Positions 3,001 through 31,915 of a stretch of 64,000 bases of DNA are shown piece after piece. Where the stretch lies: the NCBI GenBank assembly GCA_964491475.1, contig CAZBFO010000005.1:841-64840 (forward strand), given 5' to 3'. Numbering within the stretch: position 1 is the first letter of the stretch; the number at the start of each line of letters is the position of its first letter. The DNA is from an uncultured Gammaproteobacteria bacterium (lineage in GTDB: Bacteria > Patescibacteriota > Patescibacteriia > SG8-24). The position numbers and the translations under genes are program-made. The notes beneath the pieces were generated by a model. That model was not told the origin of the DNA. It saw only the letters and a list, made by a program, of their open reading frames with translations, and did not search any database.

Positions 3001-5995
3001 TAATGCAGTCCGTCCAGGCGCCGTTCTGGTAGCAGCGGAACTTATTGGAGGTGGTGTTGTAGTACACCAAGCCCGCCGAACCGGTCGGATCGGAAGAAAG
3101 GTTTGCGAACTGCAGCGGACCGCTCAACTGATTGTTCGAAGAGCTGGTGGAAACGATCGGGCCGGTGGCCGTGACGCCGCCGCCGAAGGTGACGGCTTGG
3201 CCGCTGGTCGCGTTGATGGCCAGCGCGCCGACCGATTCGATCTTGCCGTCGGAGTAATAAGTGGAACCGTTGCCGGCGACGACGCCGTCGATGAAGTAGC
3301 CGCGGCCGAAGCGGTTTGCCAGCGCCTGCGCGGTGTCGGTGCCGCCGACTTCCGGAACGTGAACTTCGGTCACCACGTCGGTGCTGGACCAGTCGAGCGC
3401 GGGGCTGATGGTCAGCGTGTCGCCGGTGACTGCCGTAATCTTGGCGTAGCAGGGATTGGAGACGCAGGTAGCCGAAGCCACTTTGGCGTAGTTGCCGACG
3501 TCGAAGTTCGCGCCGTCGCCGGTCTGCACGTCGAGGCTCGTGGAAGCGGTGCCGGAGTTCGCCGCAGTCGACGCGCCGTCAAGCGTCGTGAAGGCGGTGA
3601 TGGCGTCGCCGGTCGCGTTGACGTTGAAGTTGGAGCTGGTACCGACGGAGAAGAGGTTGGTCGGGGCGTTGTTGCCGATGCCGAGCCGGGCGCTTCCTGC
3701 GTTCCAGTAGAAGTTGGCGTTGTCTTGGCCAAGGTTGCCGGAACCGTCAGCGAACAGCACCGAACCGGCCGTGGCGCCGGTAATCGAGTTGCCGATGACC
3801 ATGCCGCTGCCGGTGAGCGTCGAGCAGTCGGTCCACGAGCCGCCCGCGTAGCAGCGGAAGGTGTCGGAGGTCGTGTTGTAGTACATCATGCCGTTCGTTC
3901 CGGCCGGATCTGCAGACGCCGTGCCGATGGTCAGCTTGGTGCCGGCACCGAAGACGAGATCGCCCGCCAAGTAGCTGCTGCGAGTGGACGCGCTGTAGAT
4001 TGCGCGATCGCCGGACGGGTTGGTGGTCGTGCCGATGAGCAAGTCGGTATTGTTGGTCGCTCCTGTCATCTCTTCGATGAGCACGCCCGCACGGTTCGTC
4101 ATGGTACCGACGGCAGAAATGGTGTTACCGGCAACGATGGCGCGGCTGCTGGTGATCGTTCCGGAGACATTGTTGGAAACGCCGGCATAGAAGGCAATCG
4201 CTTCACTGACCGTTCCGGTCGATGCGTTGCTTACCTCTCCATCGAGGCCTATCATGCGGTTCACGGTGCCGGTACCGTTGTGTTGAGCGTAGCTAAGGCT
4301 GCCGAGAATGGAGTTCGTCGCGGTGAAGTTCCTGCTGTTGCCCGACAGGGTTGCGATGTAGTTGTATCCGCCAAAGTACTGCGAAGAAGTATCAGCCGTA
4401 GGATCAAGCTCGAAGTTCTGGTACACGAGCGTCGCGCCAGTGGTGTCGGTGGTGCGGTGGGTGACGTTCAAAATCGACGTCGAGTCGTAGCCGGGCACCT
4501 GATTGCCGATCGTCGCGTAACCGCGAACGTCCAGAAGAGCGCTCGGAGTGCTCGTGCCGATGCCGACATCGCCCGCAAAGTAAGACTTCGCGCCGCCGCT
4601 GCTGTAAATGGAGTAGTTGTTAGCTCCGGTCGTGGTCTGATCGATGGCCAATCCCTTGTTGTTGGTTCCGGCGGACTGGTCGCTGACATGTACGCCCTCG
4701 ACGTCGGTGATGGTACCGCCACCGGTGTTGGTGATGGTGTCTGCCCAGATGCCGCGAGCGGTGCCGAGCGTGCTGGTGCCCTGGTTGCCGACGAACGTAT
4801 ACAGGCCGTAGGCGCTGTTCAGATTGCCGGTCGAGTTGAGAAACACCTCGCCGTCGAGAGCAGCGACCTTGGCGTTGGTGTATGACGTCGAGTTCTGGAC
4901 CGTGACGTAGCCGCTCACGGCAGCGTTCGTCGTGGTCGTGTTAGCCATGTTGTCTGCCTTGAGCCAGCCGAGAAGCGTGCCGTGATCTGCCGAAGCATTG
5001 GTCTCGGAGGCGAAGACGTTCGCGTCGTTGTAGCTGGCTGTGTTGTAGCCGCCGAGGTCGGTGAAGTTCGACGGGCCGGCCCAAACGTCGTAGTTGTACG
5101 TGCCGCCGGTCGCCTTGTTGATGCGAAGCGCGTAGTTCCTTGCGCCGGAACCGTTCCACGTGCCCGTAGAAGTCAGCTCGAGGCCCGCCTTGTTAACCGA
5201 TGCGGTGGACGAGGTGGTGGTGTTGGAGAGCAGCGTGCCGCTGAACGAGGCAGTTTTCGCGCCGGTGCTGCTGACCTCCAGCGTGGAAGTCGGCGTCGCC
5301 GTTCCGATACCGATCATGTTGGCAGCCGAATCCAGCACGAAGGTCGTCGTGTCGAACGTAACGTCCTTGGTGAGCGTGAAGTTGCCGGAAGCGTCGGTGA
5401 CCGGCACGAATGCATTGGAACCGCCGGCGTTCGAAGTCTCGAGGTCGTCGAGCTTGTCGGCGTTCATGGCATAACCGGCCGCCACGATGCGCTTGCGGGG
5501 TGTCATTTCTGCGTCGGTGTTGACGGTGACGCCCAGGTACATGACCGGATTGTTGAAAAGTGCGGCTGGCATCGCTGCGGGGCTGCCGGAAGTGCAAACG
5601 AGAGGGGTGGTAACGTCGCCCATCAAAACGGTGGTGGTGCCACCGACGAATGCCGCAGTCACTGCCGTGGGGGTGCTGGTGGGGTTGCCGTCGGTGGTGC
5701 ATGCAGAAAACAACTGCGTGCCACCGCTGGCCGAGTCGTAGACGGTCAGGTAGATGTCGTTGTTACCGTCAGCGACCGTGTTGCCAGCAAGATCGGTCAG
5801 TCGCATCTGGTAATTCAGAACGCGGTTCAGTTCCGGAGCCGAAGCGGCGAATGCCGTTGATACCGAGAACAGCGTCGCAAGGCCGGTAATGACCGTGATA
5901 ACGGCAAAAACAATCCGAGCAACATTGGCAAAAAATTGCTCAATGGAGCGGTTATTCTCGCGGCTCTTTCGGTCATGGTGCCTAATAGTAGCCAT
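1..5995 (-). CDS. Giant secreted/surface beta-helix (fibre-repeat) protein, 3'-partial (C-terminus lies beyond window start); paralogue of the 52985..60856 product
   Basis: Manual reverse-strand translation from ATG (complement of 5993-5995) gives MATIRHHDRKSRENNRSIEQFFANVARIVFAVITVITGLATLFSVSTAFAASAPELNRVLNYQMRLTDLAGNTVADGNNDIYLTVYDSASGGTQLFSACTT... This is clearly homologous to the N-terminus of the 2623-aa ORF (NRILNYQISLTD..., GGTQLFTAC, AEMTPRK, DDLDTSNAGGSNAFVPVTDASGNFTLTKDV). Frame continuity was checked at about 3060 (..VYYNTTSNKFRCYQNGAWTDC..) and about 915 (GNGITLTQND.. beta-helix-like repeats); all are in the same codon phase. No stop lies before the window edge, which explains its absence from the ORF track. 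The plus-strand ORFs 56..1675, 3197..4885 and 4982..5860 are codon-aligned antisense shadows. Confidence 0.6.
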   Translation of the reverse strand, partial: MATIRHHDRKSRENNRSIEQFFANVARIVFAVITVITGLATLFSVSTAFAASAPELNRVLNYQMRLTDLAGNTVADGNNDIYLTVYDSASGGTQLFSACTTDGNPTSTPTAVTAAFVGGTTTVLMGDVTTPLVCTSGSPAAMPAALFNNPVMYLGVTVNTDAEMTPRKRIVAAGYAMNADKLDDLETSNAGGSNAFVPVTDASGNFTLTKDVTFDTTTFVLDSAANMIGIGTATPTSTLEVSSTGAKTASFSGTLLSNTTTSSTASVNKAGLELTSTGTWNGSGARNYALRINKATGGTYNYDVWAGPSNFTDLGGYNTASYNDANVFASETNASADHGTLLGWLKADNMANTTTTNAAVSGYVTVQNSTSYTNAKVAALDGEVFLNSTGNLNSAYGLYTFVGNQGTSTLGTARGIWADTITNTGGGTITDVEGVHVSDQSAGTNNKGLAIDQTTTGANNYSIYSSGGAKSYFAGDVGIGTSTPSALLDVRGYATIGNQVPGYDSTSILNVTHRTTDTTGATLVYQNFELDPTADTSSQYFGGYNYIATLSGNSRNFTATNSILGSLSYAQHNGTGTVNRMIGLDGEVSNASTGTVSEAIAFYAGVSNNVSGTITSSRAIVAGNTISAVGTMTNRAGVLIEEMTGATNNTDLLIGTTTNPSGDRAIYSASTRSSYLAGDLVFGAGTKLTIGTASADPAGTNGMMYYNTTSDTFRCYAGGSWTDCSTLTGSGMVIGNSITGATAGSVLFADGSGNLGQDNANFYWNAGSARLGIGNNAPTNLFSVGTSSNFNVNATGDAITAFTTLDGASTAANSGTASTSLDVQTGDGANFDVGNYAKVASATCVSNPCYAKITAVTGDTLTISPALDWSSTDVVTEVHVPEVGGTDTAQALANRFGRGYFIDGVVAGNGSTYYSDGKIESVGALAINATSGQAVTFGGGVTATGPIVSTSSSNNQLSGPLQFANLSSDPTGSAGLVYYNTTSNKFRCYQNGAWTDCITSGSGVSIGDSITSATAGSVLFADASGNLGQDNANFYWDDTNNRLGLGTTSPSSNFQIVGSTDPVQETIDAYGNSVAANLTARRARGSVGSPTAVNANDTLFTFNAKGYNGSAFTSLSNAAIIFKAGENFTTSANGTYLTFETTTNGTTTRTERMRIADTGDVTMTSDLALNGGDLTTSQTSATLFNSTATTLNIGGAATTVSIGASTGTMTLANGTINLSNGDLQTGGTQRLSNGGALSNITGISSSGTITFSGITASRFVTTDGSSNLTASQNSAALSATLTDETGSGAAVFGTSPAITTSLTTGSTSFDLVNTAATTLNVGGAATSLNLGASTGTFTVANPTVTLTNATALNLNGASPSVATSSTGTASVFNTNATTVNVGGAVGSAGVNLAGGSGSTGCTVDGTNGNLSCSGTIAGAGGSATKTYTYVVAASGGDYTTLGAAVAACPSSGCSIWVKDGTYTETSTITIPYSKIQIFMSAGAIIQADGASVTPLIQMTSGIGQVTITGGRWLNTNGSAVGTAFDMSNAAYTWVSKVSIENWNLGVLYQDTAATTYYNSLTDARLFDNNSCVEYSGSQANANHMINVRCRPKAGGAGTGLNLVDTRGLTVVGSDFEPSSPTGITGVHIDGTSQNISLLNSWIEGNATGLLIDSGASRVTVEGATISSNTTDITDNGTATAFINARYSSGLVGKQTLNVYNGLGGNGITLTQNDTTNNGRGIAVTNAGTGNAIYIQQNGATGSNATSSGALLVDNTNNLGIGVNFYTNAGSGQSSAGLVFMKQDNSAGDGPVLRLDNDGTSSAIKINNAGNGTTLDVANSGTGAALRLTPTGNTSTSTSIGGTLLINNTSNLGSGIVVYSNAGASTSGARLLSLRADNTSYDQNVMAISNDGTGTSLDINATGGTGGGISVSADGTGHTITATYSGSTSSVAAGNFVSTSNAFTAFEVTGHETSHGTIKASHVYDGVTADTNAAVLSLDRQGAGTAAQGIFIDSTVSGG

Positions 5996-6172
5996 CTTTT
6001 TTGCGACAAATACCCGAGGCTCTAGAAAAATAGCTATAAATAGCCCTATTCTAGGCCTTGTACCATTTTACCATTTTTTGGCACGCTTCTCAACGGCAAT
6101 GAGCCACTTTTTGAGCTCATTTATGCTGCTGGGTTGAGCCAAATACTGGTACTGGTGTGGAAGATTTTTTAT

Positions 6173-6246
6173 TTGTCCACAAGCTCACTATCTTCTGGGA
6201 AGCATAAACCTACTGCTCCTGTGGATAGTTTAAGCCATGTGGACAT
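6173..6246. promoter_or_regulatory. DnaA-box-like motifs upstream of the partial giant gene (minus strand); shares TTTATTTGTCCACA(A)GC with the region upstream of its paralogue
   Basis: TTGTCCACA 6173-6181, TGTGGATAG 6220-6228, TGTGGACAT 6238-6246. Compare 6166-6186 (ttttttatttgtccacaagc) with 52850-52872 (cactttatttgtccacagcaag). Confidence 0.45.
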
Positions 6247-6256
6247 TTGTTCCCTC

Positions 6257-6299
6257 CACGCCTCGTTGCCAAAAAAACACGCTTTGGCAACGAGGCGTG
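6257..6299. terminator. Strong hairpin terminator between the two giant minus-strand genes
   Basis: cacgcctcgttgccaaa-aaaacacgc-tttggcaacgaggcgtg, 17-bp perfect stem. Confidence 0.65.
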
Positions 6300-6335
6300 T
6301 CCCCGATTTTCATCGGGAAACGCTTAATTCAGGCT

Positions 6336-9300
6336 TTATTCTGTCTTCTTCTCTTCAGGATGCGCCTGATCGGCATCGGGCAACAAGCGACCATTCTGGG
6401 CTCCAGAAGCCTCGTCCTTGAGTTCCTTTAGCAGTTCGGCGGCGGATTCATGCTTTATGACGGGAGTAGGCGCAGCTTTGTCCACGCTTGTTTGGACATT
6501 TGAGTCTTTCTTCGGTATCTCTCCCGGCTTCGGCATAACCTTAATGCCGTCATCGCCAGTCGTGGGCGGAGACGCTTCCGGTTTGCTGCCAGTGGTCATT
6601 TTCTTCAGGCGCGCGAGCATCTTTGCCTCATAGGACTCGCCTTCTGCCACGGGCTCTGCCTTTGGCATTTCTGGTTGCGCGGCTGCAGGTGCTACGGGTG
6701 ACGGGACTGCGGCTGCAGGCGCCGCCGGAGCCGGTGCGACCGGCGGTGCGATAGGAGTCTCGATGGACTTTACCGGTGTACGGAGAGCCAACCCAGCCGG
6801 CTGGGGCGGCATGGCCGGCAGTGACGTCGAAATGCGCTCACCGCCGTCCGTTGGCGGCCCTGAAGGCGTGCCCGGATCCGCCGAAGGCACGGCTGGCGGC
6901 TTTACGACCGCTCCCGCCGCTGGCGTAGCTCCCCCTTCCGTTCGCGGCAGGTGCACGTCCACGGCGACCACATGCATGCCCTTCTCCTTGGTGTCGATCA
7001 GGTTGACCGGACCCTTCTGCTGCTTCTGGTAGCCGGGCTTCTCGAAAGTCACGTAGTAGGTGTTCTGACCCACCAAGAACGCGTAGCGCCCGCGGACGTC
7101 GGTTACCTGCGTCTCGAGCAGCTTGTTGAAGCGGGTGTCGAAGATGCGCGCCACCACGTTGGAGAGCGGCTTCTTGGACTTGTCGTCGTAAACGATGCCC
7201 CAGTTCTTCGGCTTGCGCGTAATGGACAGGCGGCGGAACAGCAGGTACATGATGACGTTTGCCCCGAACATCGCGAACATGGTCGGCGTCGGCGAAAGCG
7301 CCGTCGCCACGGCCATGGCGAGAATGGTGATGACGCCGAGGCTCTTCTGCAGGCGGCGGGCAATGCCCTCGAGCAGGATCCTGCGCGGCGTCTTTTCGAC
7401 GCTTACCGGATCGAGCGGGACGTTGGCCGTGATCGTGGTCTCCTTGGTGACCTCGATGATTTCGCCGTGATACAGGTCGATGAACTTGGCGTCTTCCTTC
7501 ATTCCGCGCAGCACGTCTGACGGGAAAACGTACGAGGTCTTCACGGCAATCATCTTGTACGTGCCGGCCTGCACGATGAAGAAGTAGCGGCCGTCCTTGT
7601 CGGTAACGGCGGAGCGCACCACGCGGCCCGTCTTGGCATCAAGCAAGCGGACGATTGCCAGGTCGATGGGCAACTTGGAGAGCGAGTTGTAGACCACGCC
7701 CCACTGCTTGCGGCGCCGGCGGGCAATGAGCATGAACGGATGTGCCAGCAAGCTCCACAGGTACAGCAGGTACGGCACCACCGTCGCGGTGGCCACGCCG
7801 GCCGCAGCGACGTTCGCCACGGTCGCAACCGTCGCCGCGGGCGCGGCGATGTCCTGCGCGTTCTGCTTCACGTAGGCGTTGCCGGCGAAATCCGCTACGG
7901 CGTCGGCGGCGATCTTCGCGGCAAAACTGACGTTGGCGATGACGTCGTCTTTCGGCGGCAGCTTGATCAGCTTCACGTCGTTGCGCAGCACGTTCTCCGT
8001 GGCAAGCGGGAACGGAAGCGTGGTCTTCGTCGCGTATTCGTCGCGTTCGACGATCAGCTTGTACGAACCGATGGGCAGGATGTAGCCAAAGCGGCCGTCG
8101 GCGTCGGTAATCTGGGGGTTCTGCTGGCTCGAAGTGCCGCCGTCCCACAAGCCGAAGTTGCCGCCGCCGTTGTCGATCATCAGCGTCACGCGAGCGCCTG
8201 CCAGCGGAGCGTTTCCGTTATCGTCAAGCACGCGCGGTCGCGGCACGGTGCGCACGATGAAGTGCACGCTGTCGGAACCGCCGTCCTTGTACTTGACGAT
8301 GACGTCCATCGGATAGTCGGCGCTGGTCGAGGGCGTGGTCACCGTGGCTTCATAGCTGGCCGTCTGCCGCATCACGTAGCCGGCGTTATTGAAGTTGATG
8401 AAGGCGCTGTCGATCTCGTGCTTGATCGAAGGATCGGGAATCATCACGGTGAACACCGACGAGCTGTAGTAATTCAGCACGCCGCCCTGCATGCGCAGCT
8501 GGATCTTTCCCGAGGTGGCGAAGTAGCGCAGAGCGTCCGGAGTCAGCTTGATGTCCGAGCTGACCGTCGGCTTCGGCACCTCGACCGGAGGCTCCTGCGG
8601 AACGATCGGGCAGTCCGCCGGGCAGTTCAGCGAGTTCTCCTCGCCGGCGCAGATGCCGTTGCCGCATATCTCGGTGCTGGGCGGCGCGTTCGACGGGACG
8701 CACTTGCCGGCCGAGCACTTGAAGCCGCCGCCGCAGGCATGCGTCTCGGTCTGGTGCTGGTTGGCTTCGTCGCAGTAGCGCTCGAGCAGGGTGGCTTCAT
8801 CGGCGCACGAGTCGGTCTCGGTCTGACCGCCGTTGAAGCTGACCGTGCCCTGCAGGTCGTAATTCTTGCCGCCGTCGCTGTCGCTGCACGACGGTCCGAC
8901 CGGCGGAGGAAGGTTCGCCAAGGGAGTGGCGTCGTCGAACGCGCCTGACGCGTAGTTCAGCACGTTATCGTAGGCGAAGGCGCCGTAGTAGTACTTGGTG
9001 CCGTTGGTGACGCCGTTGTCCATTTTGTTGTCGCCGATGCCGTCGAATACGACGGTGCCGTCGTTCGGACCGCTCGGGTTGCTTCCCGTCTTGCGCACCA
9101 CGCGCGTGCCGGCCCAATCGGCATCGCTCGGATTGTGCCAGGTCAGCTGCACTTGCGCGTCGCCGGCGGTCGCCGTCAGCAGCGTCACCGGACCCGGCGG
9201 CACGTGGTCTCCGCCCGCGGGAGTCGCCTGCGCCTGCGCAGGCGTCGAATAATTCGGCACCGCGTCGTAGGCGTAGAGCGTGTAGAAGTAGAGCGTGCCG

Positions 9301-12014
9301 TTCGCGACGGCCGTATCAAGGTAGCTCTGTTGCGGACCCGAATACACCAGCGTGCCGTCGGTGGGGCCGGTGGAGTAATCGCCGATCTTGCGCAACACCT
9401 TCACGCCCTGGAAGTCGATGGCGCTCGGATTGTTCCAGTTGAGCTGGATCTGCGAATCCCCCGGCGTCGCGGTCAGGTTGGTCACCGGTCCCGGCGGCGT
9501 GGTGTCGGCAGTTCCGGCCGGCGTGGCGTTGGCGATCGCGCCCGAGGAATAGTTGGGCACGTCGTCGTAGGCGAACACCGCGTAGTAATAGGTGACGCCG
9601 TTGGTGACGGTGAGGTCGATCTTCGAAGTGCCGCTGCCGGTGTACACCGGCGTGCCGTCGTTGGAATCGGTCGGATACGAAGTCGTCTTGCGGAGCATTT
9701 TCACGCCCACGAAGTCGGCATCGGTCGGATTTGTCCAGTTCAGGGTCACCTTCGAATCGCCCGGGGTTGCGGTCAGCCCGGAAACGTTCGCCGGCGGCGT
9801 AGTGTCCGCAAGCGTCGTGAAGGTGAAGTCGTTCGAGATGACCGTCTGGCTGCCGGTGTCCGTAGAAGAGACGCGGAAATGGTAGAGCTTTCCTTTGGTC
9901 AGGCCCGTCAGCACGATGGCATGACTGGTCGTCAAAGTGGCGCTGCTGGCAGTCGAGCCGTAGCTTGCCTGCAGGCCGTACTCCACGGTGGAGTCCGACA
10001 TGGTGCCCAGCGTGTCCCAAGTGATCGTCGCGCCCGTCTGCGTGATGGCCGTCGACTGGACGTTGGTGATGTCTGGCGGCGTGCCGTTGCAGATGTTGGC
10101 ATCGTGCAGGAAGTTGATGGTCTGCGGGTTGCCGGCACCGTCATGCGAATCGGACCACAGCAGCTGGTCCTTGCGGAGCACGCCGTGATAGTAGATTTCC
10201 GCGCGAACCACATGGTGCCACGACGAGCTTTCCGGCTGGGCGCTGAACAGCACTGCCGAGCAGTCGCGGTGATCGACATCAACGACCACGTCGTTGTAGT
10301 CGAAGTCGATGCCCTTGTCTTCGAAGCCGTAGCGGTCGATGCCCGGCGACAAGTGCGTCACCTGCACGTAATTGCCGCCGACCTTTCGCACGGTGCCGTC
10401 CGGATTGATGATGTACGGATAGAATTCGGTGGCGGTGCAGTCCACGTTGCAGGTGCCGGGGGCCGCCGCCAGCGTCTTGAAGGTCAGGTCCGCGGTGTTG
10501 GCGGAGTTGGAAGAGAGGTCCTTCGAGGTCAGCTTGTAATGATAGGTCGTGTCGGGGTTCAGGCCGGTCAGGTCGAAGCAGCGCGTCAGCGCATAGTTGG
10601 TGTCCGTCTTGGACTGGCCGTAGGCGTTGGTGATGCCGTAATCGATCAGCCCGTCGGCGGCCTCGTTCGTGTCCCAGCAGACGTGCGCCGACTCGCTGGT
10701 GATCGAGGTCACCTGAATGTTGCTGATGATCGGCGGAGTGGTGTCGGCCACGCAGGAAAGCTGCGTCACGAAGGTGGCGTCCGAGGTGAACGACTCGTTG
10801 GAAGCGGCATCGCCCGAACGCACGCGGTAATGGTACTGCGTGTTGGGCGTCAGGCCGGAAAGGATGACCGTGTGCGAAACCACCAGCGTGGCACTGCCGC
10901 TGGTCGAGGCGTACGGCGGACCGACGGGCAGGCCGTAGTCGACGTAGCTTGTCGAGTTTTCGTCGGTGGTCCAGGTGACGGTAGCCGAGCTGCACGCGGC
11001 GCTCACGTTCACGCTCGAGATGCTCGGCGGCGTGGTATCGGCCATCGAGAACGTCTGATCGCCGGAGCAGGCCTGGTTGTTCGAAGGATCCTTTGAGCAG
11101 ACCTGGTAATGATAGGTCGCGCCCTCGGTCAGCGAGCTAAGCGTCAAACAGTGGACCGCGATGTACGCGCCGTTCGATTGCTGGCTGCCGTAAGTATTCG
11201 TCAGTCCGTAATTGACCGTCGAGTCGGCGACCTCGTTGGTGTTCCAGCACACGTCGATGCTGTTGGTGGTCGCGTTCTGCGTGTGGATGTTGGTGATGAT
11301 CGGAGGGGTCACGTCCGCGCCGCCACCGCCGCCGCCGCCCGGCGGGGGTGCGCCGACCACCGTCGCCGTGATGGTCACGTCGCCGCTGTCGATGATGGAA
11401 ACGGCCATGCTGCAGATGTCGCCCGCCACCTGGCAGTCGCCCGCGCCGTCCAGCACGCCGATCGCGTAAGAACCCGCAGCCGACGGGTTCGTAAGCGTGC
11501 CGTTGGGTGCCGCACCGCCGACGGTGAACGTCACGAAAGCGCCCGCAGCGCTGCTCGTGAACGATCCGCCGCAGGGAATCACGCGGAAAACCAGACCTGC
11601 CGTATCCACCGCCACGCCTACGTTGTTGACACCGTCGGGGCAGACGACCGTAGAAACGGAAGGCCCCTGGTTGACGCCGGCGATGGTGCGGGCGGTACCG
11701 TCATTAAAGGAGAAGTCGGCTGCGGCCCACACGCCGCCCGTGGTGAACGCGCTGGTCTCCGGCAGGTCGATGGCGATCTTTTCGCCGGCCGCAAAGGTGT
11801 TGCCTCCGGACAGGTTAAAGGAGATGACGTGGTTGGCGGCAGCGCTGACGGCCTGGTTGGAGAGCTTATCCTGGCGGTTGGTGAGCTGCGCCGCGTAAAT
11901 GCGAACCACGACCGCGGTCGCCGCCACGATCAAAAACAAAGCCAAGCCCATCCACGCGTTCATGCGTCGAAGGCCCTTTGCGGCTTTGACTTTCTTTTCC
12001 CTACTCTCCTGCAT
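6336..12014 (-). CDS. Giant (1892 aa) multi-domain membrane/surface protein. It has an N-terminal signal-anchor, at least 7 Fn3-like domains (YHYQV/YHYRV/YHYKL/YHFRV motifs; three tandem TTPPGPV..LNW..GVKVLRK..YYY..AYD repeats) and a Cys-rich module. CarboxypepD_reg-like domains alternate with TM helices, and there is a Pro/Ala-rich C-terminal tail
   Basis: Single 1892-aa ORF. Domains were recognised by eye from the translation. TM segments lie at the N-terminus and at about residues 1395-1420 and 1545-1580, each followed by RRRRKQWGVVY.. or RKPKNWGIVYD.. and a DGRYxF..G.Y beta-sandwich motif. Confidence 0.75.
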   Translation of the reverse strand: MQESREKKVKAAKGLRRMNAWMGLALFLIVAATAVVVRIYAAQLTNRQDKLSNQAVSAAANHVISFNLSGGNTFAAGEKIAIDLPETSAFTTGGVWAAADFSFNDGTARTIAGVNQGPSVSTVVCPDGVNNVGVAVDTAGLVFRVIPCGGSFTSSAAGAFVTFTVGGAAPNGTLTNPSAAGSYAIGVLDGAGDCQVAGDICSMAVSIIDSGDVTITATVVGAPPPGGGGGGGADVTPPIITNIHTQNATTNSIDVCWNTNEVADSTVNYGLTNTYGSQQSNGAYIAVHCLTLSSLTEGATYHYQVCSKDPSNNQACSGDQTFSMADTTPPSISSVNVSAACSSATVTWTTDENSTSYVDYGLPVGPPYASTSGSATLVVSHTVILSGLTPNTQYHYRVRSGDAASNESFTSDATFVTQLSCVADTTPPIISNIQVTSITSESAHVCWDTNEAADGLIDYGITNAYGQSKTDTNYALTRCFDLTGLNPDTTYHYKLTSKDLSSNSANTADLTFKTLAAAPGTCNVDCTATEFYPYIINPDGTVRKVGGNYVQVTHLSPGIDRYGFEDKGIDFDYNDVVVDVDHRDCSAVLFSAQPESSSWHHVVRAEIYYHGVLRKDQLLWSDSHDGAGNPQTINFLHDANICNGTPPDITNVQSTAITQTGATITWDTLGTMSDSTVEYGLQASYGSTASSATLTTSHAIVLTGLTKGKLYHFRVSSTDTGSQTVISNDFTFTTLADTTPPANVSGLTATPGDSKVTLNWTNPTDADFVGVKMLRKTTSYPTDSNDGTPVYTGSGTSKIDLTVTNGVTYYYAVFAYDDVPNYSSGAIANATPAGTADTTPPGPVTNLTATPGDSQIQLNWNNPSAIDFQGVKVLRKIGDYSTGPTDGTLVYSGPQQSYLDTAVANGTLYFYTLYAYDAVPNYSTPAQAQATPAGGDHVPPGPVTLLTATAGDAQVQLTWHNPSDADWAGTRVVRKTGSNPSGPNDGTVVFDGIGDNKMDNGVTNGTKYYYGAFAYDNVLNYASGAFDDATPLANLPPPVGPSCSDSDGGKNYDLQGTVSFNGGQTETDSCADEATLLERYCDEANQHQTETHACGGGFKCSAGKCVPSNAPPSTEICGNGICAGEENSLNCPADCPIVPQEPPVEVPKPTVSSDIKLTPDALRYFATSGKIQLRMQGGVLNYYSSSVFTVMIPDPSIKHEIDSAFINFNNAGYVMRQTASYEATVTTPSTSADYPMDVIVKYKDGGSDSVHFIVRTVPRPRVLDDNGNAPLAGARVTLMIDNGGGNFGLWDGGTSSQQNPQITDADGRFGYILPIGSYKLIVERDEYATKTTLPFPLATENVLRNDVKLIKLPPKDDVIANVSFAAKIAADAVADFAGNAYVKQNAQDIAAPAATVATVANVAAAGVATATVVPYLLYLWSLLAHPFMLIARRRRKQWGVVYNSLSKLPIDLAIVRLLDAKTGRVVRSAVTDKDGRYFFIVQAGTYKMIAVKTSYVFPSDVLRGMKEDAKFIDLYHGEIIEVTKETTITANVPLDPVSVEKTPRRILLEGIARRLQKSLGVITILAMAVATALSPTPTMFAMFGANVIMYLLFRRLSITRKPKNWGIVYDDKSKKPLSNVVARIFDTRFNKLLETQVTDVRGRYAFLVGQNTYYVTFEKPGYQKQQKGPVNLIDTKEKGMHVVAVDVHLPRTEGGATPAAGAVVKPPAVPSADPGTPSGPPTDGGERISTSLPAMPPQPAGLALRTPVKSIETPIAPPVAPAPAAPAAAVPSPVAPAAAQPEMPKAEPVAEGESYEAKMLARLKKMTTGSKPEASPPTTGDDGIKVMPKPGEIPKKDSNVQTSVDKAAPTPVIKHESAAELLKELKDEASGAQNGRLLPDADQAHPEEKKTE

Positions 12015-12126: not shown

Positions 12127-13131
12127 TTACTGCTTCTTAGTCTTCCTCTCGTAGCGGCGAATGACCGCCTTGTTGTACCCCTTCATGCCGACCGTGAAGA
12201 ACAGGATGACGATGAGCAGCGCGAGGCCGACCAGCGTCATCATTCTCCAAGGCCAAACGGTGAAGGTGCGCACTTCCGAGAGCGTCTGGTTGTTGGAGCC
12301 GTAGTTCACGAACAGCGTGGCCTCGTACCTGCCGAAGCCGAAGTTGTTCCACTCGTTGGCCAGCTGGGTAAAGAACCCTCCCTCCTTCGGCTTGCCCGCG
12401 CCCCATCCGAAGGTGAACTTGCGGATGCTGTGCGGCAGTACGGAGCCGAACTGGTCGTTCACCTTGATGGAGGCCACCTGGCGGCCGTACCAGTTCTTGA
12501 TGAAGACGTTACCGGCGGGGCGAAGGTTGGTGTTGCCGTCGTTTTCGAACCGCATGAACATGTCGATCGGCAGCGTGTTGTACCAGAGCTTCTTGTCCTT
12601 GAAGGTGAAGTCGAGGATGCGGCCGGTCTCGTTCAGGTCGCCGCTGACGTTGACGAAGATCAGCGAGCCGAGCTTGGTTTCCACGCCGACCTCACCACCC
12701 TTAGGATCCGCCTTGCCGCTGGCCATCAGCACCGCGCCGTAGTGAGCGCCAGGCTGGGCGTCCTTGGGAATGTTGATGGCAATCGGGATGTTGGCGCGTT
12801 CCTTGGGAGCGAGCGTGTAGGTCTTGCTGGGATCGGTGATCGTGATCCACCTGGCAAGGTCGGTGCCGTCGCGCTTTTCATTCGGCGGATAGAACACCGG
12901 AATGCCGTTTTCCTCACCCTCGATGCTAGTGAAGTTCATCACCTGCACGTGGAACGTGTTCGGAGAGGTGTCCTCGTTGTACACCTTGACCACGTCCAGC
13001 ACGGTGTCGCCGGGATTCAGACGGTAGTCGACGTACGGCGGCGAGATGGTCAGCGCTTGGGCCGAAAGTGCGGGCATGAGCGTTACCAATACCGTGGCTG
13101 CTGTGGCGACTTTTGCGAGAAACTTCTTCAT
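12127..13131 (-). CDS. Secreted protein with C-terminal TM anchor and basic tail; DUF916/DUF3324 (CscA)-like cell-surface protein
   Basis: Probable start is MKKFLAKVATAATVLVTLMPALSAQA (signal peptide). The architecture matches DUF916 proteins of WxL/Csc clusters: about 300-aa ectodomain, motif INIPKDAQPGAHYGAVLMAS, C-terminal TM (WRMMTLVGLALLIVILFFTV) and a KR-rich tail. The family assignment is from memory, not from a search. Confidence 0.55.
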   Translation of the reverse strand: MKKFLAKVATAATVLVTLMPALSAQALTISPPYVDYRLNPGDTVLDVVKVYNEDTSPNTFHVQVMNFTSIEGEENGIPVFYPPNEKRDGTDLARWITITDPSKTYTLAPKERANIPIAINIPKDAQPGAHYGAVLMASGKADPKGGEVGVETKLGSLIFVNVSGDLNETGRILDFTFKDKKLWYNTLPIDMFMRFENDGNTNLRPAGNVFIKNWYGRQVASIKVNDQFGSVLPHSIRKFTFGWGAGKPKEGGFFTQLANEWNNFGFGRYEATLFVNYGSNNQTLSEVRTFTVWPWRMMTLVGLALLIVILFFTVGMKGYNKAVIRRYERKTKKQ

Positions 13132-13234
13132 AACGTCGTTACAAGAATAAAATCTTCCTTTTCGACCGTGGCAGCTAATCTCCACGGGAGAGTCCCCCTC
13201 CCCGGAGGGAGAGAGGGAGCTCGTCCCGCAAAGA

Positions 13235-14275
13235 CTAGAAGGTGCCCGTGGCCACGAAGGTCAGGACGTCCGTGTAGTCGTTGTGTGCAGCGGTCAACGA
13301 ATTGGCGTTGGCGTTGACGATGATCTCGCCGACACCCGTGCCGACCGGACCGCCGGCCGTGTTCAGGATGTTCGTCGGAGTCAAGGTCGAGAGCGCCTTA
13401 ACGTCGTTCGTGGTACCGCCCGGAGCGCAGGTGCCCGCGTTATACGGGGAAGCTGCCTGGAACGTACCAGTGGTCGCCGACGGCGGTGTGACCGTGTTCA
13501 CGCACAGGCCGTAGTTGGCGTTGGCGCTAGCCATCGCAGCTGCGGCGTTCGGGATCGTGTCCAACGGAGCCGAGGTCGACTTGAGCGCGGCATTCAACGA
13601 GAGAACTGTCACGACTGCGCCGCTTGAGGCGTTTGTCGAGAGGTTCGCCCAGATGCTGTCGATTGCCGCGTTGTCCGACGACTTCACCGTGCCCGGAGTG
13701 AGCACTCCGAACGGTACGTCATACACGGGACCCTCGGACGCGTTATTCAGGTTGGCGTTGAGGTCGAACGTGATTGACGGGTCGACCGTCGCGGTGACAG
13801 TCACCTGGTCGCTGTCATCAAGAGCGACAGCGAACGTGCCGGTGGTGGCAGCGGTACCGGTGATGGTGACCGTGCGGCTACCTGCAGTCGTGTCGTCGTT
13901 GGTGGCTGCCGCTTCGGTGATCGTAGCGACGTCGCCAGCCGCACAACCAGTGGTCGTGACTTTGAGGACGTTGCTAGCCGAGGTGTTGTCGGCAATCGTG
14001 CCGCCCGAAGGAGTGCAAGTACCCGTGGCAGTGGCAGGGAAAGTCCAGCCAGCGCCGACGTTCTGGTACGTGAAGTCCAAGTTGCCATTAACGAAGGACG
14101 CGGGAAGCGTCAGCGTGACGGTGTGGTCTGACGTCGCGCCGAGAGCCTGGCGGCTCAAGGTGTCCGACATCAGCGTTGCGTTATCGGCCATTGCCGGGGA
14201 AACGGCGGCGAACATGGCGAGCATGGTCGCGGCGGCCGTAACCTTGGCGCCGAATTTCATGAATTTGTTCTGCAT
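13235..14275 (-). CDS. Secreted Thr/Ala/Gly-rich surface protein with conserved C-terminal motif DYTDVLTFVATGTF (WxL-like, F replacing W); paralogue of 15037..15891
   Basis: N-terminal signal peptide (MKFGAKVTAAATMLAMFAAVSPAMA), low-complexity T/A/G-rich body, C-terminus shared with the neighbouring paralogue. Confidence 0.55.
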   Translation of the reverse strand: MQNKFMKFGAKVTAAATMLAMFAAVSPAMADNATLMSDTLSRQALGATSDHTVTLTLPASFVNGNLDFTYQNVGAGWTFPATATGTCTPSGGTIADNTSASNVLKVTTTGCAAGDVATITEAAATNDDTTAGSRTVTITGTAATTGTFAVALDDSDQVTVTATVDPSITFDLNANLNNASEGPVYDVPFGVLTPGTVKSSDNAAIDSIWANLSTNASSGAVVTVLSLNAALKSTSAPLDTIPNAAAAMASANANYGLCVNTVTPPSATTGTFQAASPYNAGTCAPGGTTNDVKALSTLTPTNILNTAGGPVGTGVGEIIVNANANSLTAAHNDYTDVLTFVATGTF

Positions 14276-14637
14276 GTTTTTAGTCCTTTATGCCAGTCTG
14301 CTGCACCGGGTTAGAAACGCTTGCCACAATTGGGTTGTGGGCGTAGCCACCTGGCGTGGCCAGATGACTAGCCAATCCTCCACTCTCGAGCTATGGAAGA
14401 CCGGAGTAGATGCCAAGCGTGATGCAGAGCTGGTTGTTAATGTGACTAGAACTCGTCCGTACCTTCCCGCGTAGAGAAAGTGCATTTAGTCATTCTCCCG
14501 GACAGAATCGAAGAGGTCCTACACCCTCCGAGATGCATTAGAGATGACGTATCGACCTTTAATTCCGGTCGGTCCATTGCTGAACCAACCATAAACCGCG
14601 GGGCATTCCCCCCGCGCCCCTCCACACGCCAGTCCGG

Positions 14638-14660
14638 TAATCCACACCAACTGTGGATAA
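14638..14660. promoter_or_regulatory. Inverted pair of DnaA-box 9-mers (TAATCCACA ccaac TGTGGATAA)
   Basis: Lies in the 761-bp ORF-less spacer between the two WxL-like paralogues and is preceded by a cgcgggg-cattcc-ccccgcg hairpin. Confidence 0.45.
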
Positions 14661-15036
14661 CCTGTGTCTGACCTGTGAAGAAGTGCGGAGGCATGCCTTT
14701 AAGAGCAACGCCGCGTCGCTGCTATACACGTCGCAAACCTATCGAGTTGTGAGAGCGCGGCCGACGAGTCCGATGACCATTGCGGTCGTCGTGAACTCGA
14801 CCAGAAGCCGGAACAACTTGATTTTTGTTTTTTTGCACATACGAGCCTTCTGCCGGTTAAGGCTAAGTTCTCCGTGCCTAAAAACTGCGACCTTTTCGCG
14901 CCCCTTTTGTGGAGGGGCGGGGCCGATCCCAGAGCCATGCTTCTCTTGGATCGACCTCGCACCTTCACTTGTCATTTGTCTACGCTTTTCTGGACAACCG
15001 CTTGTTGCTCGATGCCGCTCATTCGCGGCCCCGTCG

Positions 15037-15891
15037 CTAGTACGTCGCAGTCCCAATGAACGTCAACGTGTCTGTGTAGTCGCTCCCTGCAGCCGTACCG
15101 TTGCTGATCGCTGCTTTGACGAACACTTCTGCCTGTCCGCCAAGCAACTTGCCGGTGGAAGAAAGCACCGTATTCGCCGTCGTCGATACGAGACCAACGT
15201 TGTGGGCACTTGTCGTACAGGTGCTGGCGTAGGGCGAAATCGGATTAAACGTGGTCGGGCTGGCTCCGTCCTGGGTTGCATTGGCCACGCAAATGCCGAA
15301 GCCGGCCGCACCAGGTGTAAGCAGGGCTGTCGCCGAAGAAATCAAATCTGCCGTCGAGACCCGCTTCAGGCCATTGTTGTTATCGACAACGGTCACGATG
15401 GTCCCGCCCGCGCCGTTGCTTTCGGCATTGATGAACACGGAGTTGATGGTGCTGTTATCACTAGTGTTTACCGATCCTGTCGTCAGCGTAGCGAGAGCCA
15501 CTCCTGCGCCGGCCGTACCGGGCGCGGAAGTCCCCTCCTTCACGGACATCGTGATGTACGGCACGTTTGAACCGAAACACTGAAAACCGGAACAGGTCTT
15601 GAAGTTCGCGCTGCTCAAATTTTCACCGGTGGCCAAATCGCCGAGCGTATCGTTGGCTTTGTAGCTCGCCGAGCTGCTGTTGCCGCCACCTTGGCTCAAC
15701 ACATCTTGCTGCACCTTGTAGCTGGCTGAACTCATCGTTTCTGCGAACGCAAACTCACTCGTAGGAAGTACGAGTGCGATAACCACAAAAACCGCAGTTA
15801 GCGTTTGGCGAGTCTTAAGCCCAAGCATGGATGGCTCAAAGATAACTTGCCTTATGACGGTATTGTAACATTTTTTTGTCCCTTTGTCCAA
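15037..15891 (-). CDS. Secreted Thr/Ala/Ser-rich surface protein with conserved C-terminal motif DYTDTLTFIGTATY (WxL-like); paralogue of 13235..14275
   Basis: Signal peptide/TM near the N-terminus (TLTAVFVVIALVLPTSEFAFA). The true start is probably internal, at about 15828 (MLGLKT..). The C-terminal 14 aa are conserved with the paralogue. Confidence 0.55.
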   Translation of the reverse strand: MDKGTKKCYNTVIRQVIFEPSMLGLKTRQTLTAVFVVIALVLPTSEFAFAETMSSASYKVQQDVLSQGGGNSSSASYKANDTLGDLATGENLSSANFKTCSGFQCFGSNVPYITMSVKEGTSAPGTAGAGVALATLTTGSVNTSDNSTINSVFINAESNGAGGTIVTVVDNNNGLKRVSTADLISSATALLTPGAAGFGICVANATQDGASPTTFNPISPYASTCTTSAHNVGLVSTTANTVLSSTGKLLGGQAEVFVKAAISNGTAAGSDYTDTLTFIGTATY

Positions 15892-16024
15892 GCTGAAACG
15901 TGGCTAATGTTAGCCTAAAAAAAGGCAATTTCGCCTCAATTTTTACTTATCAACAGAACCGAGGAGACGATTAAGCTCAATGACTATTTAAGTTGTTCAC
16001 ATAATTGGGTACATATTCACACTT

Positions 16025-16685
16025 TTATCCACATTTAAAATTTAACCTTTATTTATTGGGTTTTTTTATCCACACAGCTTGTGTACATGTGTGAATTTGT
16101 GGGAATAACTTTGGATTCTCTTTTAAAATTGGTGAAAAATGGCACCGATGGTGTCGGCAGATCTTCTGCTTTCGTTGCTTTTCATACACAGGTCTGGATT
16201 TCATTCACAATGCTATTAGAAATGGACTATGTTGCAGCAAGTCACACCGCGATCAAATCGGCGGATTTCTCTTAATAGGCGCAATGGTCTGCTTTGTTGT
16301 ACCCGACTTACATGAAGTACTATTTGTCGCTGTATAAGCCATTTATTTAGCGTCGCATAATTAATGACAGTAATTTTAATGTAATACGCACCATTTATAG
16401 AAACGCTGCCTCGTTTTCATTTTGTTTCACGTGAAACACATTTTGTGACTGGTAAAATGCACTACAATATAATCTCCAACTGACAAAAAATATGGTCCAT
16501 TTAAATATGCCCGTGCAATTAATCTTCAAAAAGTCGGCATGTCTGTTCCACGTGAAACATCCATAATCCACATATTTGACCCACTTATCACCATAAGTAG
16601 CATAGTTATCCACAGGTAATGCACCAAAAATGGCTGCTCGAAGAATTCATCCACAGCAAAAGGATTAGACATAAACATATCCACT
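16025..16685. promoter_or_regulatory. Cluster of DnaA-box 9-mers in a 1.3-kb AT-rich ORF-less island
   Basis: Perfect TTATCCACA at 16025-16033, 16066-16074 and 16606-16614. One-mismatch boxes lie at 16564-16572 (TAATCCACA), 16648-16656 (TCATCCACA) and 16923-16931 (TGTGGATAC); ATATCCACT at 16677-16685 has two mismatches. Confidence 0.55.
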
Positions 16686-16737
16686 CCCCTTTTCATACCC
16701 TCTAAAATCTGTTACACTCCGATACACGTCCATATAT

Positions 16738-16812
16738 GCCCTTGTAGTTCAATGGATAGAACAGATCCGTCCTAAGGATAAAATGGGGGTTCGATTCCCT
16801 CCGGGGGCACCA
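16738..16812 (+). tRNA. tRNA-Arg (anticodon CCT), CCA encoded
   Basis: Manual fold: acceptor GCCCTTG/CGGGGGC (2 G-U), D arm GTTC-AATGGATA-GAAC, anticodon arm GATCC-GTCCTAA-GGATA (one mismatch), T arm GGGGG-TTCGATT-CCCTC, discriminator A, then CCA. The T-loop GTTCGATTC is canonical. The anticodon call is less certain than the existence of the tRNA. Confidence 0.55.
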
Positions 16813-16933
16813 CAGAAACCAACTCTTCGTCGGCGGTAGACAAAAAGTGCATAACTCGTGAACAAAATGTGCATACACTAATCTCGACAGCAGATATTTC
16901 GCATAGTAAGCTAAAGTCCGCTGTGGATACTGT

Positions 16934-17009
16934 GGGCCAGTAGCTCATCTGGTAGAGCGCTGCATTCGCATTGCAGAGGTGAGGAGTTCGAGTCTCCTCT
17001 GGTCCACCA
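16934..17009 (+). tRNA. tRNA-Ala (anticodon CGC), CCA encoded
   Basis: Manual fold: acceptor GGGCCAG/CTGGTCC with G3-U70 wobble (Ala identity element), D arm GCTC-ATCTGGTA-GAGC, anticodon arm CTGCA-TTCGCAT-TGCAG, T arm AGGAG-TTCGAGT-CTCCT, then ACCA. Confidence 0.85.
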
Positions 17010-17010
17010 C

Positions 17011-17040
17011 AAAACACCCATCGTGATGATGGGTGTTTTG
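17011..17040 (+). terminator. Rho-independent terminator after tRNA-Ala
   Basis: aaaacacccatc-gtga-tgatgggtgtttt hairpin followed by T-run. Confidence 0.6.
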
Positions 17041-17165
17041 TCATTCCATATTTGCACGATCTCGCTAGAACCAAATAAACATTATTTGGCTATATTTAGC
17101 TAATAATATGTGTCGTACAATACAATTTCGGCGATTCAACCAAACTAGGCTATACTACTGCCGTT

Positions 17166-18116
17166 ATGCCAAACACTCTCATCCTCATCGGACTCGTACT
17201 CGCCGTCGCCGCACCCATCTATGCGCTGTTTCAAATGAAGAAGCAGCTGCAGCAGATGAGCGATGCCCAAAGCAACGACAAAGGCCTAGTGATGCTCAAC
17301 CAGAACCTCAACACCCTCAACACCAAGCTCGACAAGACCAGCGACACCATCAACGAGCGCCTCACGAACGCGGCTAAGGTCATCTCGGCTGTCCAAAAGG
17401 AGCTGGGGACCGTCCAGGAGCGCTTCAAGGGTTTCGAGGAGTTCAACGAGCTGCTGCATCCCAAGATGCGCGGCAACATCGGCGAACAGATCCTGGCCGA
17501 CATGCTCGCGCAGGTCTTTCCGGCAGAGCAGTACATCCTCCAGCATAAGTTCAGGGGCGGGGACACCGTGGACGCAGCCATCAAGACCCAGGCCGGCCTG
17601 GTACCTGTCGACTCCAAGTTCCCGTTGGAGAACTTTCGCCAGCTCACTAGGGCCACCACGGACGAAGAAAAGAAGCTGGCGACCCGGGAGTTCGTCAAAA
17701 TGGTCAAAAAGCACATCGACGACATCAGCAAGAAGTACATCCTGCCGGACGAGGGGACTATGAACTTCGCCCTAATGTACGTTCCGTCCGAAAACATCTA
17801 CTACCACATCATCACCGACGACGAGAGCGATCTGCTTCAGTATTCCAAGTCCAAGAACATCCTGATGGTTTCGCCGCACAGCTTCTTTAGCTTTCTGCGG
17901 GTCATCATCATGGGGCTGGAACGCAGCAAATTGCAGGAGCAGGCCCAGAAAATTTGGGATATTTTGAAGGGCGTGCAGCAAGAGTCGCTGCGATTCGGGG
18001 AAACGGTCGGGGTGCTTTCCAGGCACGTCAACAACGCCAAGAATGCAATGGATACGGTTCACGCCGGCTACGACAAACTGAACGGCAAGCTGGAACAGGT
18101 TAAACTGTTAGAGTAG
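17166..18116 (+). CDS. rmuC: DNA recombination protein RmuC
   Basis: N-terminal TM, coiled-coil, then the conserved RmuC core (KMRGNIGEQILADML.., FALMYVPSENIYY..). Confidence 0.8.
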   Translation: MPNTLILIGLVLAVAAPIYALFQMKKQLQQMSDAQSNDKGLVMLNQNLNTLNTKLDKTSDTINERLTNAAKVISAVQKELGTVQERFKGFEEFNELLHPKMRGNIGEQILADMLAQVFPAEQYILQHKFRGGDTVDAAIKTQAGLVPVDSKFPLENFRQLTRATTDEEKKLATREFVKMVKKHIDDISKKYILPDEGTMNFALMYVPSENIYYHIITDDESDLLQYSKSKNILMVSPHSFFSFLRVIIMGLERSKLQEQAQKIWDILKGVQQESLRFGETVGVLSRHVNNAKNAMDTVHAGYDKLNGKLEQVKLLE

Positions 18117-29831: not shown

Positions 29832-29975
29832 AACAATATCGTTCTTAAATATATTTATATATTACTGTGGTGGTTGTAGGTGAGTGGATAGCGGGGAAAA
29901 GTCACCTACGATTGCTGGGTTGAGCCACCTGAACCTGTGGAAGCATGTGGGGTACCACGGGAGAACTGGTGGTAC
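29832..29975. promoter_or_regulatory. Candidate oriC part II: AT-rich unwinding stretch plus DnaA-box-like motifs in the dnaA-dnaN spacer
   Basis: caacaatatcgttcttaaatatatttatatattactgtgg (AT-rich 29832-29872) followed by gtggatagc, ctgtggaag and ttccacagg. Confidence 0.4.
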
Positions 29976-29979
29976 AACC

Positions 29980-30025: not shown

Positions 30026-30096
30026 TTCTGTCCACCGGACATCCTAGGTTTTTCCCACGGTTGGCCTCACAGCTTCCACAGGTTATGCGCCGCGGA

Positions 30097-31913: not shown

Positions 31914-31915
31914 AC

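Follow-up and report, generated by a model that had tools for sequence, protein, structure and literature searches.

An intergenic island with parS-matching palindromes and an ordered DnaA-box array near dnaA in an Uhrbacteria-like Patescibacteria chromosome

Background

Not every chromosomal locus that gathers DnaA boxes is an origin. The DnaA-box clusters (DBCs) of Bacillus subtilis and the datA locus of Escherichia coli are reportedly non-origin DnaA-binding loci and are said, in work attributed to Ishikawa 2007, Okumura 2012, Kitagawa 1998 and Kasho & Katayama 2013, to restrain initiation. The oriC of E. coli is an example of an origin that is displaced from dnaA. To our knowledge, Patescibacteria (Candidate Phyla Radiation) have not been grown in pure culture, and we know of no experimental work on their replication initiation or chromosome segregation. 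Here, a 64-kb stretch of DNA (termed the window) was analyzed with a focus on one non-coding gap at positions 15892-17165 (termed the island), which carries DnaA boxes and two palindromes. The RmuC and DnaA homologues assign the window to a high-GC Uhrbacteria-like lineage of Patescibacteria. Loci of relatives used for comparison are designated by L-numbers (L002, L004, L005, L007-L012, L039-L043 and L045). Literature searches for replication origins or ParB of Patescibacteria or Uhrbacteria retrieved nothing relevant.

Like the DBCs and datA, the island is an intergenic cluster of consensus boxes located a few to tens of kilobases from oriC or dnaA and, as in B. subtilis, several box clusters share one origin-proximal neighbourhood in the window. 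A spacer of fixed length between two key boxes is reminiscent of the arrangement of box 2, the integration host factor (IHF) site and box 3 in datA. The island has a more ordered and more conserved architecture than is known of the DBCs and is joined to parS. In contrast to datA, an IHF site was not identified in the island, and homology is neither expected nor claimed. Judged from its sequence, the island is a candidate auxiliary locus of the datA or DBC type, as such loci are described operationally. We consider it somewhat probable that it is an auxiliary DnaA-binding locus combined with a centromere and that the DNA is unwound near dnaA. The island represents ordinary origin-region housekeeping DNA of an Uhrbacteria-like Patescibacteria chromosome and is neither a foreign insert nor a new kind of element. 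It places the universal parS sequence and canonical TTATCCACA boxes of this lineage in a conserved, ordered module near dnaA, which is known biology in a lineage where it was not previously described and reveals no new mechanism.

Results and Discussion

Two parS sites in the island

Two palindromic 16-mers were located between the DnaA boxes of the island:

16423-16438, unstranded: parS-1, TGTTTCACGTGAAACA, a perfect palindrome and exact match to the consensus
16544-16559, unstranded: parS-2, TGTTCCACGTGAAACA, identical to the consensus TGTTNCACGTGAAACA, with a DnaA box at a distance of 4 bp

Both 16-mers match TGTTNCACGTGAAACA with 0 mismatches, where 0.10 matches are expected by chance in 64 kb, and no further site with up to two mismatches is present in the 64 kb. 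This sequence is listed as the consensus of chromosomal parS for B. subtilis, C. glutamicum and Burkholderia, and near-identical forms are given for Caulobacter, Hyphomonas, Mycobacterium and Streptococcus (PMC7022226, Table 1). All papers retrieved by a full-text literature search with the palindrome sequence deal with ParB and parS. A preliminary description of this DNA had reported two 14-bp CACGTG palindromes and had taken them to suggest the site of a dimeric transcription factor. The palindromes are present, as GTTTCACGTGAAAC at 16424-16437 and GTTCCACGTGAAAC at 16545-16558, even though they had been placed 4 and 1 nt too high; the interpretation was wrong in kind, as the sites carry the exact parS consensus.

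Perfect parS sequences were also detected in the homologous gap of L002 (two sites), L004 (one), L008 (four), L010 (three) and L012 (three). L043 contains two imperfect sites with 1-2 mismatches, and the gaps of L005, L007, L009 and L011 contain sites at 1-3 mismatches from parS. In total, parS recurs at this position in 11 relatives, with one to four copies each. No parS was found in the other loci examined, which include unrelated loci and 77 kb around dnaA from four relatives. The 16-mer is under selection, as it was kept intact while its surroundings align at only about 50% identity. By sequence, the two palindromes are parS sites of a ParB centromere. In analogy to the studied chromosomal ParABS systems, a ParB dimer would nucleate on parS and spread over the neighbouring DNA, and ParB at parS would drive SMC loading and the segregation of the origin region.

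The closest counterpart is the chromosomal parS/ParB (Spo0J) system of organisms such as Bacillus subtilis, Corynebacterium and Caulobacter, whose 16-bp sequence is identical to the island sites. As for chromosomal parS elsewhere, the island sites are present in more than one copy, clustered near dnaA/oriC and positionally conserved across species. The island, with both parS copies in one gap, lies 13.4 kb from the canonical rpmH-dnaA-dnaN locus, in the proximity of the origin region. In contrast to that system, the island sites number just two in 64 kb, in a single non-coding gap beside tRNA genes, and the distance of 4 bp between parS-2 and a DnaA box is a further difference from known parS. 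Many bacteria carry parS inside or next to parB, whereas parAB genes are not located near the island.

An ordered array of DnaA boxes

The translated DnaA protein keeps the intact DNA-recognition motif of domain IV (GGRDHTT..H), which justifies the canonical box as a search pattern. The sequence scan identified the following boxes in the island:

16025, 16066 and 16606, plus strand: perfect DnaA boxes TTATCCACA
15947, 16564 and 16647, plus strand, and 16922, minus strand: DnaA boxes with one mismatch

When the island itself was shuffled 1000 times at the dinucleotide level, the expectation was 0.019 for perfect boxes and 0.51 for those with at most one mismatch, compared to three and seven that were observed, and none of the 1000 shuffles reached these counts. 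AT-richness therefore does not account for the boxes, and the three perfect and four one-mismatch boxes listed in the preliminary description hold up beyond the shuffle expectation. With 14 boxes of up to two mismatches and 6-7 of up to one, the island is the richest box cluster of the 64 kb. The boxes are organized as follows:

15947-15955, plus strand: one-mismatch box TTATCAACA in an AT-rich stretch at the left edge
15993-16108, unstranded: ordered DnaA-box array, the best-conserved block in an alignment of five islands
15993, rightward: box a, TTGTTCACA
16013, rightward: box b, ATATTCACA, followed by a 3-bp gap
16025, rightward: box c, TTATCCACA
16034-16065, unstranded: c-d spacer, 32 bp, AT-rich, fifth least stable 30-mer of the window
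16066, rightward: box d, TTATCCACA
16080, 16090 and 16100, leftward: degenerate boxes e, f and g
16564-16685, plus strand: second DnaA-box cluster with TAATCCACA (16564), TTATCCACA (16606), TCATCCACA (16647) and ATATCCACT (16677)
16922-16930, minus strand: one-mismatch box GTATCCACA, 4 nt upstream of tRNA-Ala

Boxes c and d are spaced by 41 bp, and L002, L004, L005 and L007 have exactly this spacing. Boxes a-c are kept in L008, L010, L012 and L043, while boxes d-g are lost or degraded there; the array of L043 consists of one perfect and two weak boxes, though its parS is kept. The leftward degenerate boxes read TGTGGATTG, TGTGGATTT and TGGGGATAA in relatives, and the more distant relatives L008-L011 contain a perfect leftward TGTGGATAA in the AT-rich stretch that corresponds to the left edge. 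The c-d spacer is conserved in length and not in sequence, and is unlikely to be a conserved unwinding element as it is GC-richer in L008, L010 and L012. The second cluster begins 4 bp after parS-2, is phased by 42 and 41 bp and is partly conserved in L002 and other relatives.

The array works like a DnaA-assembly region, for which it is a candidate. The two phased box groups (15947-16108 and 16564-16685) would form a conserved high-affinity platform for DnaA, which most likely would titrate or control DnaA, perhaps in connection with ParB and with the promoters on either side. The earlier proposal of an origin-like or datA-like locus is thus upheld with regard to a non-random, ordered and conserved box array. 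The 16-mers and the 120-bp array offer defined DNA targets for in-vitro work with recombinant ParB and DnaA.

Proposed unwinding near dnaA and strand skew

If the island is an auxiliary locus, DNA unwinding would start beside dnaA, 13 kb away, in the dnaA-dnaN or the rpmH-dnaA gap. This region contains the following features:

28674-29831, minus strand: dnaN (Pfam)
29832-30096, minus strand: dnaA-dnaN gap with the dnaA terminator hairpin, tandem weak boxes TTTTCCCCG / CTATCCACT and period-3 CNA repeats
30097-31500, minus strand: dnaA (Pfam, translation)
31501-31776: dnaA promoter gap with tandem boxes 11 bp apart
about 31777-31914, plus strand: rpmH

The least stable 30-mer of the 64 kb (29835-29864) is located in the dnaA-dnaN gap just before dnaN, and about 70 bp before dnaN (29832-29900) are conserved in five genomes (the window and L039-L042). 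The conserved block consists of two abutting weak boxes, followed by C-N-A triplets (CTA CAA CCA CCA ...) and an AT-rich run. It looks like a degenerate DnaA-trio unwinding module that keeps the G and T, and not the central A, of 3'-GAT-5'. In the lower-GC distant relative L041, the dnaA-dnaN gap contains a clean module, the only clear case found by the strict search, with a box, a 4-nt GC-rich spacer, CTA TTG TTA ATA CTT and an AT-rich run.

The plus-strand GC skew in 1-kb bins is negative in 13 of the 14 bins at 16-30 kb and positive in all nine bins at 30-39 kb, which places the cumulative minimum at dnaN/dnaA. In the GC-skew check that the preliminary description had suggested, the window minimum is therefore found at about 30 kb and not at the island, while the relatives are inconsistent. 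The skew also changes sign at the island, with a polarity opposite to that at dnaN/dnaA. Among the genes between rmuC and dnaN, those on the minus strand have a skew at third codon positions (GC3 skew) of about 0.00, compared to -0.24 for those on the plus strand, so that the minus strand is G-rich; this polarity is the reverse of the expectation for forks leaving the island. Right of dnaA, the values are -0.18 and -0.13 in the same order of strands. Pooled for the window and four relatives, the GC3 skew amounts to -0.036 (plus strand) and -0.239 (minus strand) on the dnaN side and to -0.254 (plus strand) and -0.168 (minus strand) on the dnaA side, and the polarity flips at dnaA/dnaN. The second origin that had been proposed for the island is not supported, as a single dnaA-dnaN locus is present 13 kb away, with the skew switch located there and not at the island. 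With only a single dnaA and a single cluster of centromere sites, a second replicon with its origin at the island is rejected as well.

Several observations weigh against an auxiliary locus with a centromere and unwinding near dnaA. The number of boxes around dnaA is thin for an origin, with none of up to one mismatch in the dnaA-dnaN gap and only two in the rpmH-dnaA gap, and the AT-rich stretch before dnaN could simply represent the dnaN promoter and leader. At identical gene order, L004 and L012 show the reverse GC3 polarity in the rmuC-polA block, which is flat in L043. As the polarity of the relatives is inconsistent, the skew argument is solid only for the window and its closest relative, and the opposite polarities reflect either noise or a differing replication direction through the rmuC-polA block. 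The skew left of the island is unreadable, since giant surface-protein genes dominate there and their coding strand is C-rich wherever it is located. Finally, motifs of ParB (GERRxRA) and ParA (KGGxGKTT) were absent from the long open reading frames (ORFs) of the window and of the relatives' loci, which cover a fraction of each genome; no parB or parA was thus found in the examined sequence, and ParB is the presumed binding protein.

Could the island itself be the origin?

A possible but unlikely alternative is that the island is oriC itself, located 13 kb away from dnaA and physically linked to the centromere. DnaA would then fill the array and open either the 32-bp c-d spacer or the stretch at 16340-16400 that follows a 12-mer element described below, and the few boxes around dnaA would only autoregulate dnaA/dnaN. 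Like a bacterial oriC, the island has many phased boxes in both orientations, AT-rich neighbours, divergent flanking transcription and parS nearby. Its cluster is not only the richest but also the best ordered of the 64 kb, with three perfect boxes among the 14 of up to two mismatches and a phasing of four helical turns. The array architecture is conserved across relatives, the island holds the third and fifth least stable 30-mers of the window, and the gaps flanking dnaA are poor in boxes. In L004, L012 and weakly in L007, a plus-strand-leading GC3 polarity is observed right of the island, as expected for outgoing forks, and tRNA-Arg, tRNA-Ala, rmuC and rpsT are all directed away from the island. 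In addition, parS is usually located very close to origins (PMC7022226).

The window and L002, however, show the opposite strand polarity right of the island and a skew minimum at 30 kb, so that the island lies off the window's skew switch. A search for an unwinding module was carried out with a pattern of a box, a spacer of up to 16 nt, at least three NTN trios and an AT-rich sequence, with an orientation rule taken from the arrangement of R1 and the DNA unwinding element (DUE) of E. coli and from PMC7561715 and PMC8287927. No such module with at least four trios was detected in the island, and marginal matches with three trios are not conserved across relatives. The strict form of the search gave no match in the island or in the dnaA-flanking gaps of the window, and the best match of the window is located at 52859. 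The island consequently differs from an oriC with the basal unwinding system of box, trio and AT-rich DNA (PMC8287927) in that a DnaA-trio run in the required register is missing. Its AT-rich partner is not conserved either, as the spacer proposed for unwinding lacks AT-richness in L008, L010 and L012. In L043, about one good box is left of the array. In contrast to a displaced oriC, the ancestral rpmH-dnaA-dnaN arrangement is intact 13 kb from the island and possesses its own conserved box block before dnaN. Comparable conserved box clusters are also present elsewhere in the window. As these are found at 6.2, 14.65, 46.7 and 52.8 kb, a rich cluster does not by itself mark an origin in this DNA, and as five other gaps are enriched in boxes, such enrichment is not diagnostic of oriC. 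Of the three oriC features looked for in the window, the island thus shows a box cluster above chance and lacks the other two, the skew switch and the unwinding module.

A wider version of this idea, which we regard as more doubtful still, is that the origin moved away from dnaA in this Uhrbacteria clade and fused with the centromere in a non-coding module of about 800 bp. If this were true, ParB loading and DnaA assembly would be coupled, with the DnaA array at most 350 bp from parS and a box 4 bp from parS-2, and the opposite GC3 polarities would indicate that the use of origins (island or dnaA-proximal) differs between close relatives.

DnaA boxes in other gaps of the window

Five further gaps (6068-6335, 14276-15036, 31501-31776, 46141-46775 and 52627-52984) are enriched in boxes over shuffles of their own sequence. 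In addition to the dnaA promoter gap given above, the following groups were located:

6173-6246: box group in the 6068-6335 gap between surface-protein genes, with TTGTCCACA, TGTGGATAG and TGTGGACAT
14638-14660: convergent box pair TAATCCACA-5 bp-TGTGGATAA in the 14276-15036 gap between surface-protein genes
46711-46815: four boxes at the right end of the ORF-free stretch 46141-46815
52627-52984: one perfect box, three one-mismatch boxes and more weak boxes

In this part of the chromosome, DnaA boxes generally occur in gaps that carry promoters. As such clusters are common, box counting is unsafe for origin prediction in this genome, and automatic prediction should be viewed with caution, since box counting would call the island oriC. 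The only strict module of the window is located at 52859 and consists of a box, a 6-nt spacer, five NTN triplets and an AT-rich sequence. The box arrangement of the 52627-52984 gap is conserved in L045, although the adjacent protein is just 61% identical.

These clusters bear on a quite improbable explanation in which all boxes are transcriptional operators only. DnaA would regulate the divergent surface-protein, tRNA and rmuC promoters within a wide DnaA regulon and have no role in the control of initiation, and parS would share the gap by chance. It is in line with this explanation that the other box clusters of the window are all located in promoter-bearing gaps, namely upstream of giant surface-protein genes (6.2 and 52.8 kb), of the gene at 13235, of dnaA and of a possible RNA gene (46.7 kb). 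The 52.8-kb cluster is conserved in a relative, and the second cluster of the island lies 50-170 nt upstream of tRNA-Arg. However, relatives differ in how far the main array lies from the closest promoter-like element (8 to about 240 bp), which is a poor fit to precise control. The array is located about 100-220 bp upstream of the leftward promoter, and its seven phased boxes exceed typical operator needs. A role as operators is also compatible with titration and does not exclude it.

Two of the gaps show additional features. The stretch 46141-46775 (635 bp) is ORF-free, has a near-average GC content and folds much better than shuffles on both strands (z = -3.8). On the plus strand, 46141-46815 contains GGAGGAAUGUGCC and GGGGUGAAAG, which are faintly like RNase P RNA, while an Rfam search of 46141-46815 at E<=1 gave no match; the stretch may be an unannotated RNA gene. 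The 52627-52984 gap is flanked by a gene for a 262-aa hypothetical protein, followed by rpsO, NYN-domain and PNPase genes, and by the gene of a 2623-aa surface protein.

Base composition and the possibility of an integrated element

The GC content of the island is 39.7%, compared to 58.8% for the window, in agreement with the sharp drop noted previously; both AT-rich stretches quoted at that time were found as well. All intergenic DNA of the source genome is AT-rich. The island is also ORF-free as had been claimed: its longest ORFs do not exceed 72 aa, except for one that is antisense to the tRNAs, and a six-frame comparison of ten homologous islands revealed no conserved peptides, barring short matches over the box array. 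A hidden gene in the island was ruled out on these grounds. An Rfam search of the island at E<=1 yielded two tRNAs and one sub-threshold chance match, and no other known RNA.

It had been suggested that the island is the remnant of a mobile element which integrated at a tRNA gene, with the low GC content reflecting a foreign origin. The low GC beside two tRNA genes and a single weak repeat of the 5' end of tRNA-Arg at 16505 (16 nt, 81%) are the observations in its favour. We reject this origin as very improbable, because the island contains no integrase or other mobile-element gene and no att-like repeat of a tRNA 3' end, and because both flanks are syntenic. The same gap, with both flanks and motifs, was found in all ten relatives examined (RmuC identity 67-90%), and the comparison with syntenic regions that had been recommended for the detection of insertion boundaries showed the island together with its flanking genes in each of them. 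Moreover, the low GC is shared by the intergenic DNA of this genome in general. A gene for a XerC/XerD-type tyrosine recombinase (60944-61900) is located directly upstream of tRNA-Arg(TCT) and tRNA-His (to 62149), and this recombinase-tRNA site (60944-62149) is a more plausible integration hotspot than the island.

tRNAs, promoters and small conserved elements

Apart from its boxes and parS sites, the island and its left border contain the following features:

15862-15890, minus strand: sigma-70-like promoter TGGACA-17-TACAAT, found by consensus scan, serving the leftward surface-protein operon
15902-15915, unstranded: inverted repeat GGCTAA-tg-TTAGCC at the left edge of the island, in conserved columns of the five-island alignment
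16350-16361, plus strand: 12-mer GCGTCGCATAAT (family GTGTCGYAWAAT), resembling a promoter -10 element, upstream of parS and followed by an AT-rich stretch
16738-16812, plus strand: tRNA-Arg(CCT), CCA end encoded
16934-17009, plus strand: tRNA-Ala(CGC), CCA end encoded
17110-17121, plus strand: second 12-mer copy GTGTCGTACAAT, with the start codon of rmuC 45 nt downstream

Both tRNA genes had been recognized in the preliminary description and were verified. Directly 3' of tRNA-Ala, a perfect 14-bp hairpin (17009-17041) with a T run looks like a terminator. The island would also serve as a transcription locus, with tRNA-Arg(CCT) and tRNA-Ala(CGC) and their promoters as well as the divergent promoters of rmuC and of the surface-protein operon. 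The leftward surface-protein gene (15037-15829/15891) encodes a signal-peptide-like N-terminus. The inverted repeat GGCTAA-nn-TTAGCC lies just upstream of the predicted leftward promoter, and variants are found in L010, L011 and L012. The proposal that the surface-protein locus has its regulatory hub here may hold for this part of the island DNA, namely the promoter and the conserved inverted repeat.

Copies of the GTGTCGYAWAAT 12-mer are present before parS, before rmuC or at both places in the relatives (L002-L012 and L043). It was not found in the rest of the 64-kb window or in 77 kb around dnaA in relatives, and one stray copy is located in L011 on the minus strand downstream of rmuC. As neither a conserved -35 element nor a palindrome accompanies the 12-mer, it is termed promoter-like, and its assignment as a site for an extracytoplasmic function (ECF) sigma factor or LexA was dropped. 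The 12-mer may mark a specialised promoter or a regulator site.

Genomic neighbourhood and synteny

Left of the island, surface-protein genes are located on the minus strand at 15037-15891, 13235-14275, 12127-13185 (with a WxL-interacting domain) and 6336-12014. The right boundary of the island is the start of rmuC at 17166. The rmuC gene is followed by rpsT and by genes for an M50 peptidase, holA, a DUF155 protein, polA, tRNA-Cys, a ROK kinase and a class A penicillin-binding protein, after which dnaN, dnaA, rpmH, rnpA and yidD are found. Two of these genes were not listed above:

17166-18116, plus strand: rmuC (DNA recombination protein; Pfam PF02646, E 8e-50)
31958-32323, plus strand: rnpA

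In a second genome, the stretch from the island to dnaA is contiguous, spans about 14 kb and matches this arrangement. The gene order from the surface-protein genes over the island to polA is shared by L002, L004, L007, L009, L010, L012 and L043, and that of L008 and L011 agrees as far as their sequence reaches. L005 carries a local inversion of the holA-M50-S20 segment. A polA-anchored metagenome scan for loci that span both the island and dnaA yielded only distant relatives with 32-48% identity.

Two observations concern DNA further away from the island. At the left end of the window, an ORF of at least 2021 codons (2-6067, minus strand) runs out of the sequence; its GC content at third codon positions (GC3, 0.81) is typical of real genes here, yet this giant surface-protein ORF was absent from the ORF listing. 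The plus-strand ORFs listed instead (56-1675, 3197-4885 and 4982-5860) show a GC content of about 0.8 at first codon positions (GC1) and a GC3 of about 0.5. They almost certainly represent spurious shadows of the giant gene. On the far side of dnaA, TTACAATATGTAACAT occurs twice at 36119-36165, 31 bp apart from start to start, with each copy near-palindromic. Of all 60-bp stretches of the window, this one is the least stable. It lies in the gap upstream of a small gene on the minus strand with its end near 36105, and the pair looks like a paired operator.

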